Positions 3,308 to 39,179 of a DNA stretch of 64,000 bases are shown here, piece after piece. The DNA is from Minisyncoccota bacterium (GTDB lineage: Bacteria > Patescibacteriota > Minisyncoccia > Phycocordibacterales > UBA2100). The position numbers were made by a program, and so were the translations under genes. The stretch lies in assembly GCA_043780835.1 (NCBI GenBank), contig JAYWCB010000010.1:66845-130844 (forward strand), given 5' to 3'. The notes under the pieces were generated by a model. The model ran no database searches. It was given only the letters and a program-made list of their open reading frames with translations, and was not told the DNA's origin. How positions within the stretch are numbered: position 1 is the first letter of the stretch; every line of letters begins with the position of its first letter.

Positions 3308-4132
3308 ATGGCTTCACTCATCAATGCACTGCTTTTGGTAGCTCTTTCCCCATTTTTGTTTGCGCTCGTGATTTTGTGTATCGATATGGTGTGGGTATTT
3401 TTGATCGCGCTATATCTTCGCAATAACGGTATCGTCGATATTGCATACGGCCTCGCGTTTATTCTCGTTGCAGCGACAACGCTCTATAACTTTGGAGCGT
3501 ACCCCCTCGGTGGGATCGTGACGACACTTGTATCGGTGTGGGGCTTGCGCTTGGCCATACGAATTCACGAGCGCACTCGCACCCATCCCGAGGATTTTCG
3601 TTATGCGGCGTGGCGTGAACGATGGGTATGGTTTAAAACCCGCAGCTTCTTTCAAATATATATGTTGCAGGGATTTATCGTATGGCTTATTTCGCTCCCG
3701 GTAATCTTTGCGAACACCAATCCGGCACCTGTATTTTCGATTCTCTCCGCAGTCGGCCTCTTCGTATGGCTTACCGGTTTTTTCTTTGAGGCAGTCGGTG
3801 ATTACCAACTCGACACGTTCATCAAAGACCCGCTCAACAAAGGTGCGTTGATGACGAAAGGTCTGTGGAGCATTACGCGACACCCGAATTACTTCGGTGA
3901 AGCAACGATGTGGTGGGGTATGTGGCTCATCGCACTGCCGTCCATACTGCCCTTTGGAACCGGCATAGTTGTGGCAACGTGCGTTTTCAGCCCAGTACTG
4001 ATCACCGTCTTGCTTCTAAAAATATCCGGTGTTCCGATGCTCGAGGCAGCAATGCAGAAAAAAGACGGTTGGGATGCGTATGCATCGCGTGTTGCTATGT
4101 TTGTCCCCTGGTTTCCGAAACGCACGGATTAA
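3308..4132 (+). CDS. DUF1295 / steroid 5-alpha-reductase-like membrane protein
   Basis: Multi-TM protein with the ITRHPNYFGE motif typical of the DUF1295 / ICMT-like family. Start taken at MASLINALL rather than the upstream Arg-rich extension. Confidence 0.45.
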   Translation: MASLINALLLVALSPFLFALVILCIDMVWVFLIALYLRNNGIVDIAYGLAFILVAATTLYNFGAYPLGGIVTTLVSVWGLRLAIRIHERTRTHPEDFRYAAWRERWVWFKTRSFFQIYMLQGFIVWLISLPVIFANTNPAPVFSILSAVGLFVWLTGFFFEAVGDYQLDTFIKDPLNKGALMTKGLWSITRHPNYFGEATMWWGMWLIALPSILPFGTGIVVATCVFSPVLITVLLLKISGVPMLEAAMQKKDGWDAYASRVAMFVPWFPKRTD

Positions 4133-4214
4133 AACAAGACTCGGTTATCGCTAAACCGAATCTCAGCCGCGTTCTGACGACTCATCCGACACAGAGGGCT
4201 TTTTTCCTGGAAAA

Positions 4215-4919
4215 ATGTACCATAGCGATATGACGATTGGACTCATCCTGCTGTGGATCGGCGTGATATCGCTGATTGGCGTTGGTGCGGCATATTATGC
4301 GCGCATTACTGATCGCGCTGATGCGATCGTTGCGCTCTACGTAACGCTTGTCATTACCTCTAATTTGGTAGCCTCGAAGATCGTCGGATTCGATCTGGGT
4401 TTTACAACACTCTTTGCGCCCGGTGCAACGCTTCTTTTTTCCGTAACATTTCTCCTCACCGACATCGTCAGCGAAAAGTTTGGGCGCGCCGCAACACAAC
4501 GCATGATCTTTATCGCTTTTCTTTCGCAAATCGCATTTCTCATCTTTTCTTACATTGCGGTCTCAGCGACCCCGGCGCCCTTCTTTACCGGACAGGCGGC
4601 ATTCGAAGCGGTATTTGCGTCGGTACCACGCATTGCGGCCGCCGGCCTTGTTACTTTTTTGATCAGTGAATCGCTGGACGCGTATCTGTACCAATGGTTC
4701 CGGCTGAAAACGCACGGACGACATGTATGGATGCGTAATGCATTCAGTTCAATTCCGGCGATGTTGCTCGATAGCGTGCTGTTTGTAACGCTGGCCTTCT
4801 ACGGAGTGACGCCGATTCTGCCGCTGATCATCGGACTCACTGCTATTAAATGGATCGTCGCCGTTATCGATATTCCGTTTATGTACATCGCCCGCGCCGT
4901 CATTGGCGCAGGAAAATAG
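4215..4919 (+). CDS. YhhQ/DUF165-family membrane protein (queuosine-precursor / vitamin uptake transporter family)
   Basis: 6-TM protein. The VTLVITSNLVASKIVGF motif resembles the YhhQ family. Confidence 0.5.
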   Translation: MYHSDMTIGLILLWIGVISLIGVGAAYYARITDRADAIVALYVTLVITSNLVASKIVGFDLGFTTLFAPGATLLFSVTFLLTDIVSEKFGRAATQRMIFIAFLSQIAFLIFSYIAVSATPAPFFTGQAAFEAVFASVPRIAAAGLVTFLISESLDAYLYQWFRLKTHGRHVWMRNAFSSIPAMLLDSVLFVTLAFYGVTPILPLIIGLTAIKWIVAVIDIPFMYIARAVIGAGK

Positions 4920-6925: not shown

Positions 6926-7087
6926 GTCAAGCGCTCGAAATATTGCCGACGCAATATTCCTCCGCCTGACCACGCTCGCGCCGCTCCATCTGCTGATGGA
7001 GCCTCCGGCGCTCGCCTTCGAATCCCTCCCTCAATCTCGCAATGATGAATCAAAAAAACCCCTTACCGGAGTCTTTTCGAATCATTG

Positions 7088-7172
7088 CGGAGGGGGAGAG
7101 ATTCGAACTCTCGAGACCTTGCGGCCTGGCGCATTTCAAGTGCGCTGGAATCAACCACTATCCGACCCCTCC
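7088..7172 (-). tRNA. tRNA-Ser (anticodon UGA), class II with long variable arm
   Basis: Reverse complement GGAGGGGUCGGAUAGUGGUUGAUUCCAGCGCACUUGAAAUGCGCCAGGCCGCAAGGUCUCGAGAGUUCGAAUCUCUCCCCCUCCG. 7-bp acceptor, 3-bp D stem, anticodon loop CUUGAAA, T-loop UUCGAAU. Confidence 0.8.
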
Positions 7173-17065: not shown

Positions 17066-17526
17066 ACCGCGGCAAACAAAATCACCCCCGCCGCAACAGA
17101 TACATTGAGCGATTCTTTTGATCCGAGCATCGGTATTTCGATGATGGTGTCGCACGCGTCGCAGAGTGATTTTGAAAGGCCGCGCACTTCATTCCCGAAC
17201 AGATACAGAGTTGCATCGGCTTCTTTAAATGAGCGGTACGGTAGGGCGCGCTCATCTTGTTCGACACCGACGATATGAACCCCTTCTTTTTTGAAGCGAC
17301 GAATTGTGGGAAGTGGTGTTTTTACATATGACCACGGGATCGTATGCTCGGCGCCAAGCGCTGTTTTTGCGATGTCTTTTTGTGGCCGGCCGAATCGATC
17401 CACCGGGAGGGGTGTATAGCCTGAAAGAATGATTTCGTGTACGCCGGCGCAATCGGCTGTGCGGAAAATGGACCCCACGTTATGAGCACTGCGGATATTA
17501 TGTAAAAGCACGGCGCGTTTTTGCAT
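17059..17526 (-). CDS. TrmH/SpoU-family RNA 2'-O-methyltransferase
   Basis: LHNIRSAHNVGSIFRTADCAGV...LFGNEVRGLS...IEIPMLGSKESLNVSVAAGVILF SpoU motifs. Start taken at MQKRAV. Confidence 0.7.
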   Translation of the reverse strand: MQKRAVLLHNIRSAHNVGSIFRTADCAGVHEIILSGYTPLPVDRFGRPQKDIAKTALGAEHTIPWSYVKTPLPTIRRFKKEGVHIVGVEQDERALPYRSFKEADATLYLFGNEVRGLSKSLCDACDTIIEIPMLGSKESLNVSVAAGVILFAAVQ

Positions 17527-30034: not shown

Positions 30035-30129
30035 TCACGATCCTTACGGCGGCCTTGCGGCCGCCGTTTCGTTGCACATCGTTTACAGTGGTTTAGGATG
30101 CCCACAGCTCAAATCCACAGGAGAATCAC

Positions 30130-30825
30130 ATGACGATTCAGTCGCGCCTCCCGAGTACCGCTGAACGGCGCACTATCGAGGATGTGTACAATGCGTTTCA
30201 ATTCAACCCGCAAAGAGACGCGCAGGATAGTGCCAAGAAGAAACTCGCAATGGGAATCGCTTCCGTTGTACTGCGCGATATGTTCCAACACCCGAAAGAA
30301 ATTGTCGCCGCGCTCTTGCGTAGTGATACGCTCTGGGTACAAGAAACAACCGTGCACGCCGAGCGACTGCTGCAATTATCAAAAGAAATGCGCGATATTG
30401 TCGTGGGTATCAAGGGCCTGTCTGTGCAGAAAAAAATAGAACAGTCTGTGCCTCGTAAAAAGCCGCGACAACAAACGCGTAACGCTAAGTGCGCGAATCT
30501 GAATCTTGAAGCAATGAACGACATAGCGTCGATTATCAGCTTCAAACTCGGTATTGCGCTCGAAGACATACGCGGCGATACCCGGGGACTGGCTGAATCA
30601 AACGCCCGATTTATCGCCATGGCAATAACATGCGCACTGCATAAAGACTGGAGACATGGCCACATTGCAGAGTATTTTCGACGTCATGCGTCCGATGTTA
30701 CGTTTGCACTCAGACGCGTTTCTCTCGCCTTAGAGCGCAAATCCAACACCGCCCTCCATCGCGACACGGAGCGAGTCTGCAACGAATTCGGGATTCAGTC
30801 CGTCGTGTTGAAAATCGACCACTGA
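30130..30825 (+). CDS. Protein with DnaA C-terminal (domain IV-like) helix-turn-helix DNA-binding domain
   Basis: C-terminal RGLAESNARFIAMAITCALHKDWRHGHIAEYFRRHASDVTFALRRVS resembles DnaA domain IV (R...ARQIAMYL...IG..FG.RDHTTV.HA). No AAA+ domain. Confidence 0.4.
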   Translation: MTIQSRLPSTAERRTIEDVYNAFQFNPQRDAQDSAKKKLAMGIASVVLRDMFQHPKEIVAALLRSDTLWVQETTVHAERLLQLSKEMRDIVVGIKGLSVQKKIEQSVPRKKPRQQTRNAKCANLNLEAMNDIASIISFKLGIALEDIRGDTRGLAESNARFIAMAITCALHKDWRHGHIAEYFRRHASDVTFALRRVSLALERKSNTALHRDTERVCNEFGIQSVVLKIDH

Positions 30826-30894
30826 AACACATCTGTGGATATGCACATACCTCGTTGCCGTCCAGGCTATAGAATGATCTGGACACACGGTAAC

Positions 30895-30930
30895 GAAAAA
30901 GCCTCCGATCGCTCGGGGGCTTTTTTCGTC
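30895..30930 (+). terminator. Rho-independent terminator
   Basis: aaaaagcctccgatcgctcgggggcttttttcg: GC-rich hairpin plus T-run. Confidence 0.6.
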
Positions 30931-31224
30931 TTCGGCCATTTCGAATCGCCGTACGGTTGTGCACAGCTTGATATGATCTCACCGTACTCGAGCTAGAAAT
31001 GATGCTTGCGCTTCAGTTCCCCGCACGACCACTGTTCTGACCGACTATTCCCACAGTGTGTCTCACTTTCGTTTTGACGGGATCCTGGGAACTGAGATTC
31101 GATTTGCCGATCTTGCGACCAGTCGATCGTTTCTCGCTGACACACGGTAAGGCGTATCAGAAGTCAAATACTACTGCGCCGTTTTACGAGTCAAATAATG
31201 ACCAATCATCTGTTTCGGGGGATT

Positions 31225-31345
31225 AGTCATGCGTAACTATGTGGATAGCGAGGGGATAACGGGGTGGATATCTCCACACTCACCGTATGGTGGCTCTACA
31301 GTGGGGTTTTAACGTAGCGACGGAACACTTCGTGGATGTTCGTTG
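31225..31345. promoter_or_regulatory. Cluster of DnaA-box-like 9-mers (tgtggatag, ggggataac, ggtggatat, cgtggatgt) in a 640-nt non-coding region
   Basis: ctatgtggatagcgaggggataacggggtggatatc closely matches the module upstream of dnaA (ctatgtggataacaaggggatatc) and resembles gggggataacgggataac in the dnaA-dnaN spacer. Confidence 0.4.
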
Positions 31346-31466
31346 GAGCAGGTCATTTCCCTTAATCACCCATCATTGATTTCATGGAAATAAACGCTCG
31401 TTACTATCGGCACAGCATGCAATCTATGAAGTTTGCCATTCGTGTGTAAGCGAATAGAATCAGCGC

Positions 31467-32000
31467 ATGTCGGGACACAATAAATGGAGTCAGATCAAGC
31501 ACAAAAAAGGCGCGACCGATAAGGCAAAGTCTAATGTGTGGGGCAAGCTCGCCAAACGCATCATTGTGGAAAGCCGTCTGGCCGCCGGCGATGTTACCTC
31601 TCCCACGCTCCGCACCATGATCGAAAAAGCGCGCAAGGAAAATATGCCGAAAGAAAATATCGAACGCGCGGTCGCAAAAGGGATTTCCAAAGACGCCGGC
31701 ACTATGGAGAGCATCCTCTACGAGACCTACGGTCCGGGTGGTGCGGCAATTCTTATTGCGACCGTCACCGACAGCCGTAATCGCACCGCGCAAGAAATAA
31801 AACACCTCCTCACAAAAAACGGTCTTGAGCTCGCATCGCAAGGCTCGGCCATGTGGGCGTTTGAAAAGGATATCGAGGGCGGATTCACCGCAAAAACGAC
31901 TGTTCCCCTATCAGAAACTGACAACGACGCGCTCATGAAAGTACTCCAAGAGATCGATGCCAACGACGACGTCGAAGACGTCTACACGAACGCAGAATAA
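31467..32000 (+). CDS. YebC/PmpR-family protein (short form)
   Basis: MSGHNKWSQIKHKKGATDKAKSNVWGKLAKRI matches the YebC N-terminus. Only 177 aa. Confidence 0.6.
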   Translation: MSGHNKWSQIKHKKGATDKAKSNVWGKLAKRIIVESRLAAGDVTSPTLRTMIEKARKENMPKENIERAVAKGISKDAGTMESILYETYGPGGAAILIATVTDSRNRTAQEIKHLLTKNGLELASQGSAMWAFEKDIEGGFTAKTTVPLSETDNDALMKVLQEIDANDDVEDVYTNAE

Positions 32001-37322: not shown

Positions 37323-37559
37323 AGTTATTTAATTAAAGACTATTACTACTACTAGTCAGGGGGATAACGGGATAACTCACATTGAGCTAGGAAACACGCG
37401 GTATTTTTGGTAGGGCGCGGTAGTGGATAACTGCTGTGCGAACGATGTGTAACGAGTGGATTCACGCGAACATGAAAAGCGAAAGAGGTTGTTCATGGTG
37501 ACTTCATGGTGCTGTACCTCGTGCTGTCCTACCTGGTATGCACTCGATATCCACATATA
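37323..37559. promoter_or_regulatory. oriC-like dnaA-dnaN intergenic region (AT-rich DUE plus DnaA boxes)
   Basis: AT-rich atagttatttaattaaagactattactactactag. DnaA-box-like agtggataa, gggggataacgggataac, gagtggatt, atatccaca. Confidence 0.5.
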
Positions 37560-38909
37560 CTAGGCGTGAATCAGTGCGCGAATATGGTCGAGCTCCTGTT
37601 CGAGCGAGCTCGAGGTTTTCATTTCTTCCTTTATTTTTTCACATGAGTGAATGACGGTGGTATGGTCGCGACCGCCGAGTTTCTCGCCGATAGACGGATA
37701 CGAAACGGCGAACTCTTCTCGCAAGACGTACATAATGATTTGTCGCGGCTTCACCACCTCCTTCTTTCGGGTTTTTTCGTAAATACTCTTTTCCGGCACT
37801 TCGTAGTATTGCGCGATGCGACGCACCACCTCGTCTATTGAAACGCCCCGGTTGGGCTTCACATTGTGTTTGATGAGTGCGCGTACGTCTGCATGAGAAA
37901 TTGCCTTTCCCTTCAGCTGCGATTTACAGACAATCATATTAAGCACCCCTTCGAGTTCGCGAATGTTGCCGCGTACATTTTCTGCGATGTATTGAATGAT
38001 GTCGTCGGGAATAGAAAAGCCGTGCTGTTCTATCTTTGCACTAATAATTGCAGTGCGTGATTCAACATCGGGTTCCGGTATTTCTGCAATCATTCCGCCT
38101 GAAAAACGTCCCTTGAGGCGGTCTTCAAACCCGGGCAAAAGCGACGGATGTTTATCCGATGAAAATACAATCTGCTTATTGTTATCACGGAGCGCATTAA
38201 ACAAATGGAATAATTCTTCCTGAGTCTTCTCTGTGTTTGCGATGAACTGCACGTCATCCATGATGAGTACATCGTATTGTCGGTACTGGTCCTTGAAATT
38301 ATTGGCATGCCCTGCTCGCACCGCATTGATGTAATCAATCGCAAAGCGTTCCGACGTGACGTACAAGACCTTCTTATTGGCATGGGACTTTTTGAAATAG
38401 TTTCCGATTGCCTGAATAAGATGTGTTTTCCCGTGACCGGTCGATCCGTATATAAAAAGCGGATTATATGCGAGGCCCGGTCGCTCAAGAACGGCCTTTG
38501 AGGCGGCGTGTGCGAGCTGATTGAATGGGCCGACGACAAACGTATCGAACGTGTAGCGTGGATTCAGGTTGTCGCGCTTGTCTATATAGAGCGATTGCAA
38601 ATCAAAAGATGCATTTTGCTGCGGCTCTTGCTTTTGTGGCTTGCGATCCGCCTGTGGAGCAGTTCGATGTACCACGTATTCGACAATCCGAATTGAATTA
38701 TCAAGACTGCGTAGCGCCTTCAAGATTAATTTGTGATGTTTGTCTGAGAGCCACTCTTTTACAATCTTTGAGGGAACGGCAACTTGAATCGTTCCCCCAT
38801 CGCGATGAGAGACGTCAGTATTTCGGAACCATGTGCGAAACGATGCCTCGGACGTGCCTAACTCAATCTGCACGAGTGCGTTCTGCCATAGTTCTCTGTT
38901 AGTCATCAT
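37560..38909 (-). CDS. dnaA: Chromosomal replication initiator DnaA
   Basis: AAA+ motifs (LFIYGSTGHGKTHL, LIMDDVQF), domain IV (RQIIMYVLREEFAVSYPSIGEKLGGRDHTTVIHSCEKI). Start set at MMTNRELWQ. Confidence 0.9.
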   Translation of the reverse strand: MMTNRELWQNALVQIELGTSEASFRTWFRNTDVSHRDGGTIQVAVPSKIVKEWLSDKHHKLILKALRSLDNSIRIVEYVVHRTAPQADRKPQKQEPQQNASFDLQSLYIDKRDNLNPRYTFDTFVVGPFNQLAHAASKAVLERPGLAYNPLFIYGSTGHGKTHLIQAIGNYFKKSHANKKVLYVTSERFAIDYINAVRAGHANNFKDQYRQYDVLIMDDVQFIANTEKTQEELFHLFNALRDNNKQIVFSSDKHPSLLPGFEDRLKGRFSGGMIAEIPEPDVESRTAIISAKIEQHGFSIPDDIIQYIAENVRGNIRELEGVLNMIVCKSQLKGKAISHADVRALIKHNVKPNRGVSIDEVVRRIAQYYEVPEKSIYEKTRKKEVVKPRQIIMYVLREEFAVSYPSIGEKLGGRDHTTVIHSCEKIKEEMKTSSSLEQELDHIRALIHA

Positions 38910-39002: not shown

Positions 39003-39179
39003 AACTATGTGGATAACAAGGGGATATCTTTTTTCATTTAAATATGAGCACTCGGCTCGCGTACAAAATGCAAATCCCTTTTTTATGTTCCCCTCACCTC
39101 AGCGTCTCAGAAAACGATGAATTATTTTAATTTACGTGCACGATTGCGTTTTTCATAATCGTGTCGCATACTACGCCGC
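39003..39179. promoter_or_regulatory. dnaA upstream region with perfect DnaA box and AT-rich tracts; also rpmH promoter region
   Basis: tgtggataa at about 39008-39016; AT-rich ttttttcatttaaatatgag and attattttaatttacg. Confidence 0.45.

Follow-up and report, generated by a model that had tools for sequence, protein, structure and literature searches.

In the autoregulated dnaA promoters of Escherichia coli and Bacillus subtilis, and in the DnaA regulon generally, DnaA boxes are located upstream of the promoter. Clusters of boxes outside the origin of replication (oriC) are represented by datA, DARS1 and DARS2 of E. coli and by the DnaA-box clusters of B. subtilis; datA couples a box cluster to an IHF site and promotes hydrolysis of DnaA-ATP, and the DARS core consists of three boxes, one of which is oppositely oriented. 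A noncoding RNA (ncRNA), CcnA, is encoded at the origin of Caulobacter crescentus and is presumably activated by CtrA (PMC8959179). Replication control in the Patescibacteria, or Candidate Phyla Radiation (CPR), whose genomes are tiny and contain few recognisable regulators, is essentially unstudied. Here we describe a locus within a 64,000-nucleotide (nt) stretch of DNA from a member of this group (contig JAYWCB010000010.1; the whole stretch is hereafter called the window). The locus comprises a gene for a 231-amino-acid (aa) protein (30130..30825, plus strand) and the 640-nt gap that separates it from yebC. Its central feature is a module of DnaA-box-like 9-mers that resembles the arrangement upstream of dnaA and keeps a fixed distance from the predicted start of a structured ncRNA. 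We read this module as a conserved DnaA-binding array upstream of the ncRNA promoter, serving a DnaA-controlled ncRNA/antisense pair, and give this reading a probability of roughly 55%.

The module, AACTATGTGGATAGCGAGGGGATAACGGGGTGGATATC, spans positions 31235-31275 and has the extended form CCACATAGTT. An earlier inspection of the letters and open reading frames (ORFs) of the window (the sequence-only reading) had claimed that it duplicates the arrangement upstream of dnaA; the duplicate is real and conserved, with 23 of 27 positions identical to the dnaA-upstream 27-mer (39003-39029), or 85% rather than the approximately 88% first given. No other non-self segment of the window matches this 27-mer as well, and 200 shuffles yielded a mean of 17.6 and a maximum of 21. 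A mismatch scan resolves the module into three DnaA-box-like 9-mers on the minus strand (31240..31271), all in the same orientation and with starts 11-12 nt apart: CTATCCACA at 31240-31248 (1 mismatch), TTATCCCCT at 31251-31259 (2 mismatches) and ATATCCACC at 31263-31271 (2 mismatches). The counterpart at dnaA (39008..39027, minus strand) is composed of TTATCCACA at 39016-39008 and ATATCCCCT at 39027-39019. Read along the minus strand, ATATCCCCT-TG-TTATCCACA-TAGTT is followed, after 56 nt, by a TATAAT (38951-38946) and then by the dnaA ATG at 38909, a start based on the 449-aa gene call in a related locus (L001). The corresponding gap between box and minus-strand -10 element is 66 nt at the ncRNA, and the boxes are oriented equally at the two promoters.

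Box density points to the same place. A 500-nt segment beginning at 30801 holds eight boxes with two or fewer mismatches to TTATCCACA, compared with a background of ~1.3, and is the densest in the 64 kb. When a weight matrix trained only on relatives is applied to the window, the top two matches are those at 39008 (15.1 bits) and 31240 (13.8 bits). Of two additional 9-mers noted in the sequence-only reading, ATATCCACA at 30834-30842 was retained as a box (1 mismatch), and ACATCCACG at ~31335 was rejected, having three mismatches to the consensus and no conservation. As a separate observation, six weak box-like matches (at least 6 bits with the relatives' matrix) fall within ~17301-17500, one of which reaches at least 8 bits (17411); these probably reflect chance.

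To collect related loci, the 24-nt motif CTGACACACGGTAARGCGYATCAG was searched for in public genomes and metagenomes, which gave 17 loci; contigs encoding members of the protein family described below added more. A hairpin pattern applied to metagenomes gave nine loci, and a metagenome scan with the earlier pattern CACGGTAACGAAAAAGSCTCCGA gave zero. The comparative set consists of 23 loci from Patescibacteria metagenome-assembled genomes (MAGs) and metagenomes, plus the window; the 140 nt upstream are available for 22 unique ncRNA copies. Loci carrying the same non-coding motif all come from MAGs labelled Kaiserbacteria, Paceibacterota or 'Saccharibacteria'. Individual loci are designated by L numbers.

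The description of the 640 nt as non-coding is correct in that there is no protein gene, but most of the gap is occupied by RNA genes. The larger of these is a structured ncRNA of ~270 nt on the minus strand (30893..31161), recognised by RNAalifold folding, covariation and z-score. Besides a 5' hairpin and a terminator it contains two GNRA-capped hairpins and a multi-branch domain that is closed by a long-range helix, and three of its hairpins in all are GNRA-capped. The ncRNA occurs as two paralogous types, 'A' and 'G', that are usually arranged in tandem, and the window carries the G type only. Folding of six G copies with RNAalifold yields -96.2 kcal/mol for the minus strand (covariation term -5.4, 89 pairs) and -61.6 kcal/mol for the plus strand (covariation -0.2). 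Pairing involves 93.6% of cells on the minus strand, where 21 pairs are changed on both sides, versus 12.6 ± 2.1 in shuffles (0/500) and 4-8 in slid controls. The single-sequence fold of the window copy has an energy of -102.4 kcal/mol and a z-score of -4.93. GNRA apical loops (GCAA, GAAA and GUAA) are found on the minus strand only, as are the G-U pairs.

The 5' hairpin (31137..31160, minus strand; CUGAUACGC-CUUACC-GUGUGUCAG) is formed by nine base-pairs, three of which are G-U. All nine are kept across 21 copies of the A and G types, with exchanges of G-U to A-U or C-G, and the three G-U pairs would be A-C mismatches on the opposite strand. A combined MAFFT alignment of the A and G types recovers only the shared hairpins and not the long-range helices. 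The plus strand was considered as the RNA strand and rejected: folding energy and covariation point to the minus strand, and so do the G-U pairs and the GNRA loops. On these comparative grounds the ncRNA is real and is carried by the minus strand.

A putative promoter precedes the ncRNA (31168..31194, minus strand), with a -10 element TAGTAT at 31173-31168 and a -35 element TTGACT at 31194-31189. In the copies read, TAnnAT is found 7-8 nt before CUGAU, and TTGAC or TTGCA another 15 nt upstream. At the 3' end there is a good intrinsic terminator (30925-30896) followed by a U-run. A protein-coding role was rejected because no frame is open in all copies, and the indels are of 1 or 4 nt. The combination of conserved structure, promoter and terminator with no conserved ORF is that expected of a structured ncRNA, and its transcription is predicted. 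At the gathering thresholds of Rfam 15 the whole window yields two tRNAs only, and in E-value mode the region 30780-31480 yields only the terminator hairpin (best 29.3 bits versus a gathering score of 55). Neither a viral contig scan nor blastn against phages matched the element, so that nothing points to an origin in phages. For the invariant loop GAGAUCAUAUCAA, candidate targets elsewhere in the window did not exceed chance, and literature searches for structured RNAs of the CPR returned no earlier description of the locus.

A hairpin, AATCCCCCGAAACGGGGGATT, was also observed between the boxes and the -35 element of the ncRNA (31203-31229 in the window; 3150-3172 in L008; 4609-4631 in L010). 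Where a minus-strand DoxX gene ends immediately upstream, the hairpin is intact and looks like the terminator of that gene; in the window and in L003, neither of which has the DoxX gene, it has decayed.

The boxes are linked to the ncRNA by their register. When 9-mers differing from TTATCCACA at no more than two positions are counted over the 140 nt that precede the RNA start, there are 2.95 boxes per copy, compared with a background of 0.36 (8-fold). A box is present at -88 in all 22 unique copies; the others are at -100, and at -112 in the G type or at -76 and -64 in the A type. In the window the three boxes are centred ~83, 94 and 106 nt before the ncRNA start. Nearly all upstream boxes in the 22 copies are in the RNA-sense orientation.

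The boxes might instead regulate the divergent yebC gene, whose promoter (TTGCCA-16-TAGAAT; 31433..31460, plus strand) is placed 6 nt before the yebC ATG at 31467 and is conserved in L003, L008, L010 and L011. Four loci (L004, L009, L015 and L023) have their boxes in a ~110-nt gap between the ncRNA and yebC promoters, where they could serve both. The boxes of the window, however, lie ~190 nt upstream of the yebC -10 element, and in L008, L010, L011, L020 and L027 a DoxX gene, sometimes with more, intervenes while the offset to the ncRNA is unchanged. Because the register is the same whether yebC is 110 nt away (L004 and L009) or behind the DoxX gene, we assign the boxes to the ncRNA promoter and regard yebC as a distinctly unlikely target. 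Two features of yebC were noted in passing. Its mRNA appears to be leaderless, since the promoter ends 6 nt before the ATG, and YebC is 177 aa long in the window and in all relatives found, compared with the typical length of ~240 aa.

The fixed register also bears on the proposal of the sequence-only reading that the module is a titration or reactivation site of the datA or DARS kind, in which case its proximity to an ncRNA promoter would be incidental. Like those systems, the locus has a conserved cluster of three to four boxes outside oriC and ~6 kb from it, which would therefore be duplicated early in the cycle, and a closely spaced array in one orientation could nucleate a DnaA oligomer. 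A pure sink, however, would not need the register to the RNA start that is fixed in all 22 copies, and the array has three boxes only, two of them weak. These boxes and their counterparts in the 22 copies all share one orientation, which distinguishes them from the DARS core. Neither an IHF nor a Fis site was identified at the locus, in a lineage for which no IHF consensus is known. In addition, the presence of the same module at the dnaA promoter corresponds to the classical layout of autoregulation. A free-standing datA- or DARS-like cluster is thus not supported, and we consider a dedicated nucleotide-state or titration locus unlikely, although titration in the manner of datA is compatible with control of the ncRNA and may occur as a side effect of the array.

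The second proposal, that of a relic or secondary replication origin, can be evaluated from the surroundings of the boxes. A cluster such as that of an oriC is present (the three same-orientation boxes at 31240-31271, and the box at 30834) in a long intergenic region near dnaA, and the stretch between the boxes and a repeated 12-mer (see below) is moderately AT-rich. However, neither an AT-rich unwinding element nor a DnaA-trio was found adjoining 31240-31271, and what separates the boxes from the ncRNA is explained by the -35 and -10 elements and the decayed terminator hairpin. In relatives, the unit is tandemly duplicated together with the ncRNA. Both hallmarks are instead found in the spacer between dnaN and dnaA, where the candidate unwinding region (37323..37376) consists of an AT-rich stretch and the DnaA-trio-like ACTATTACTACTACTAG (together 37323-37358) abutting the boxes at GGGGGATAACGGGATAAC. 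The ACTATTACTACTACTAG repeat closely resembles the DnaA-trio region of B. subtilis, and the arrangement is conserved at 7030-7080 in L009 and 5300-5350 in L023. Cumulative GC skew continues to fall through 31 kb and reaches its minimum at ~36-37 kb, with a resolution limited by the 64-kb length of the window. Because the hallmarks and the skew minimum coincide at dnaN-dnaA and nothing comparable flanks the array, a past or present origin at 31240-31271 is very improbable. Judging by these sequence features, oriC of this clade is probably unwound in the dnaN-dnaA spacer. A tempting mis-annotation of the locus as a second origin or a datA-like site is thereby corrected.

The other strand of the gap appears to encode a partner for the ncRNA. 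The 12-mer GACACACGGTAA occurs exactly at 30882-30893 and at 31139-31150, with no further copy in the window. Its repetition had been recorded in the sequence-only reading, and both exact copies are indeed present, but they do not represent a DNA motif. The copy at 31139-31150 corresponds to the loop and 3' arm of the ncRNA 5' hairpin read on the opposite strand, and the copy at 30882-30893 forms the start of a plus-strand small RNA unit. The repeat therefore exists because the first 12 nt of the small RNA complement the ncRNA 5' hairpin. The predicted small RNA (30881..30926, 46 nt, plus strand) consists of GGACACACGGUAACG and a terminator hairpin; it is convergent with the ncRNA, and its hairpin is antisense to the ncRNA terminator. 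A putative -10 element, TAGAAT (30870..30875, plus strand), precedes it, and across 15 unique instances of the unit GGACACACGG is preceded at 7-8 nt by a conserved TAnnAT. The near-palindromic double box TGTGGATATGCACA (30834..30847), formed by two overlapping inverted 9-mers, is located ~28 nt upstream of this -10 element. All 15 instances have the order TG(T/G)GGATAT(G/A)CACA, ~28 nt, TAnnAT, 7 nt, GGACACACGGTAACG and terminator. In several loci (L003, L005, L006, L013 and L024) the unit lies ~50 nt from the A-type ncRNA's own terminal hairpin, and for this reason we treat it as a separate module.

The shared terminator (30896..30925; AAAAAGCCUCCGA-ucgc-UCGGGGGCUUUUU) is an inverted repeat predicted to act in both directions, for the 231-aa protein gene and the small RNA on the plus strand and for the ncRNA on the minus strand. 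Its stem covaries (CG/GC 3:3), and it is the sole source of the weak Rfam matches mentioned above. The simplest reading of the plus-strand unit is that it specifies an RNA of 46 nt with antisense complementarity to the terminator of the ncRNA and with a free 5' end that could form 12 base-pairs with the ncRNA 5' hairpin, the putative pairing segments being GACACACGGUAA and UUACCGUGUGUC.

This arrangement resembles known convergent antisense pairs in that two convergent RNAs share a terminator, as in 3'-overlapping type I toxin-antitoxin RNAs, and in the complementarity between a short RNA and a hairpin loop (CUUA) of a longer one, as in plasmid copy-control RNAs with YUNR loops. The 5' hairpin loop, CUUA or UUUA, fits YUNR, a motif typical of antisense targets. 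The locus differs from such pairs in being chromosomal and conserved rather than plasmid-borne, and in having a second pairing site at the opposite end of the long RNA, at a distance of 250 nt. Because it has no conserved ORF, the long RNA is not a toxin mRNA.

We then consider the gene at 30130..30825, which had been described as ending in a DnaA domain IV-like helix-turn-helix (HTH) but lacking an AAA+ domain. Both parts of this description hold. The protein has an N-terminal helical domain (residues 10-106), a disordered linker and a C-terminal segment (119-227) with the fold of DnaA domain IV. Its own match to Bac_DnaA_C (PF08299) covers model positions 2-69 of 69 at 24.7 bits, below the cut-off of 31.5. 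An exhaustive HMMER search of 1.8 billion representative proteins retrieved just ten relatives, which define an 11-member family, and a word-index homology search returned only the query itself. Ten of the 11 members match PF08299 at E values of 0.01 or lower (best 8.9e-15). The family profile matches the E. coli DnaA domain IV-DNA structure 1J1V with an E value of 2.4e-8 and residues 384-462 of the window's own DnaA with a probability of 80% (hhalign). An AlphaFold2 model (mean predicted local distance difference test score 88.8) has two helical domains, and the best matches in the Protein Data Bank by Foldseek are the DnaA DNA-binding domains 3PVP and 1J1V (target TM score 0.80-0.81, root-mean-square deviation 2.1 Å over 93 residues). 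Homology to domain IV is established by the agreement among the profile match, the family matches to PF08299 and the predicted fold. No Pfam match to the AAA+ domain (Bac_DnaA, PF00308) was found in the 231-aa protein, and the window's real DnaA (37560-38909/39002) matches this domain with an E value of 3.8e-65.

In E. coli DnaA, residues R399, D433, H434, T435 and H439 make base contacts in the 1J1V structure, R399 being the minor-groove arginine. The R399 equivalent is invariant in the family, and the window protein has A159 and R160 at this site. In contrast to DnaA, the window protein has H, A, S and F at the positions of D433, H434, T435 and H439, which are variable among family members P0002-P0008; a more distant subfamily, P0009-P0011, retains the DnaA-like D-H-T-S/T-V-L-H. 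Because the equivalents of D433, H434 and H439 are replaced, it is doubtful whether the window protein still reads the DnaA box. The protein thus shares with DnaA the fold, the profile match and the invariant arginine of its C-terminal 110 aa, and differs in having no domains I-III, an extra N-terminal helical domain and an altered recognition helix. Literature searches for DnaA paralogs consisting of domain IV alone gave no earlier description of the locus.

Alignment of the N-terminal domain (residues 1-106; 30130-30447) with the HTH region of the C-terminal domain IV by hhalign is suggestive yet not significant (E 0.012, probability 3.6%), and it was not accepted as a second domain IV, although it may be a degenerate duplication. 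Tandem paralogs are frequent in relatives, the first with a DnaA-like recognition helix of the GRDHTTV type and the second of the diverged type found in the window (X231); examples are 17-409 and 499-1239 in L002, 1-561 and 653-1060 in L013, 120-848 and 961-1455 in L014, and 4001-4714 and 4812-5000 in L026.

All 11 family members are encoded directly downstream of ruvB and beside these RNA genes, often as two tandem paralogs (canonical-like, then X231-type). This association suits the remaining proposal of the sequence-only reading, namely that the locus has its own box-binding regulator, such that the boxes would be operators of the domain-IV-only proteins and part of a private system controlling the ncRNA and small RNA. 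The retention of DnaA-like recognition residues by P0009-P0011, the palindromic box situated right after the paralog stop codon, and the box-like AAATCCACA in the paralog's own 5' untranslated region (UTR) are in keeping with this proposal. The altered recognition residues of the window subfamily are not, and the occurrence of the identical module before dnaA speaks for DnaA itself. Moreover, a domain-IV gene is missing from the locus in approximately half of the genomes whose boxes and ncRNA are intact; the interval contains none in L004/L017, L005, L009/L018, L010, L019, L020 and L021/L022. We therefore view private operators as an improbable explanation. Conservation of gene and box module as a pair, which the sequence-only reading proposed to check in relatives, holds in one direction only, the gene always being found at the locus and the boxes and ncRNA often without the gene. 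For this reason we regard the RNA genes and boxes, with the ncRNA element located between ruvB and yebC in every locus examined, as the conserved core, and the proteins as accessories confined to the locus. Downstream of the gene, the contigs encoding the two closest homologues (L002 and L003) show nucleotide-level conservation and tandem repetition of the DNA.

The paralog gene has a putative promoter and 5' UTR of its own (30094..30119, plus strand), with a -10-like TAGGAT at 30094-30099 and the box-like AAATCCACA at 30111-30119, just before the Shine-Dalgarno sequence. The TAGGAT is found again upstream of family genes in L002, L003, L012, L013, L014 and L026. Given these two elements, the gene may be controlled by DnaA or may be autoregulated.

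DnaA control of the ncRNA/antisense pair would operate as follows. The cell's own DnaA would occupy the three same-orientation boxes upstream of the ncRNA promoter, as at the near-identical module before dnaA. Because the window DnaA retains the canonical domain IV signature GGRDHTTV, we infer from the 1J1V structure that it should read such boxes. The palindromic box pair would act at the small RNA promoter, and the output of the ncRNA, and reciprocally that of its antisense partner, would follow the level or activity of DnaA and thus the replication cycle. The 5' end of the small RNA would pair over 12 bp with the ncRNA 5' hairpin, at its loop and 3' arm, and the two RNAs would be coupled to DnaA in parallel with dnaA autoregulation. 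The domain-IV-only proteins would serve as accessory, lineage-specific modulators that may compete for the boxes or bind other sites, and not as the primary box readers.

Several observations weigh against this reading. Two of the three array boxes carry two mismatches to TTATCCACA, and the spacer between the -35 and -10 elements of the ncRNA promoter is short (15 nt). The weight-matrix check proposed at the outset ranks the modules at 39008 and 31240 first in the window, but when a low, permissive score threshold is used the box density of the locus is no longer unique there. The boxes are 80-110 nt upstream of the start, which is far for simple repression. The strict confinement of three domain-IV-only subfamilies to the locus suggests that these proteins are more than accessories. 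Finally, every organism in the set is an uncultured MAG, and all of the evidence is comparative.

Among known systems, promoters regulated by DnaA resemble the locus in the placement of boxes upstream of the promoter, and the window's own dnaA carries the same module in the same orientation to transcription. They differ from it in that the target here is a structured ncRNA with an antisense partner, and in that the boxes, spaced in a strict 11-12-nt register, are placed a long way upstream (~-80 to -110). The closest functional analogue found is CcnA, which likewise is an ncRNA gene at or near the origin with promoter sites for a master regulator of replication or the cell cycle (PMC8959179). 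CcnA, however, depends on CtrA and is situated inside Cori, whereas the ncRNA described here is 6 kb from oriC and has DnaA-type boxes; the two share no relationship of sequence or structure. Literature searches for a DnaA-controlled ncRNA of this kind found none.

A more comprehensive interpretation, which we offer as speculation and consider doubtful as a whole, is that the locus is a Patescibacteria-specific module for control of replication or the cell cycle. DnaA would reciprocally control the ~270-nt ncRNA and a 46-nt antisense RNA that opens the ncRNA 5' hairpin, acting through the phased array and the palindromic box; the fast-evolving paralogs found only at the locus would tune or hijack this switch, and the ncRNA would feed back on replication, recombination (ruvB, ruvC and yebC) or division. 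The locus yields a new structured RNA family with strong comparative support and no Rfam match, a predicted antisense partner and a rare protein family consisting of the DNA-binding domain of DnaA alone, each of them associated with DnaA boxes in which the module of the dnaA promoter is copied. Should the RNA pair indeed be driven by DnaA, this would constitute an RNA output of the initiator protein, for which our literature searches returned no precedent.

The gene order in this part of the window is a type II secretion system ATPase gene, ruvB, usg, the 231-aa ORF, the 640-nt gap, yebC, VIT1, ruvC, a class A penicillin-binding protein gene, dnaN and dnaA, with rpmH, rnpA and yidC divergent beyond dnaA. 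The ruvB-yebC interval is a variable island in relatives. Judging from ORF sequences, an apparent HicA/HicB-type pair and a DoxX-type membrane protein are encoded at 587-1925 in L021 and 10169-11507 in L022, and the segment 4745-6949 of L027 encodes a DoxX protein and an AAA_15/AAA_21 ATPase with a small partner, an arrangement that resembles a defence system. Elsewhere in the window, ARAGORN predicts a tRNA-Ser(tga) at 7087-7172 that is absent from the Rfam listing at gathering threshold.

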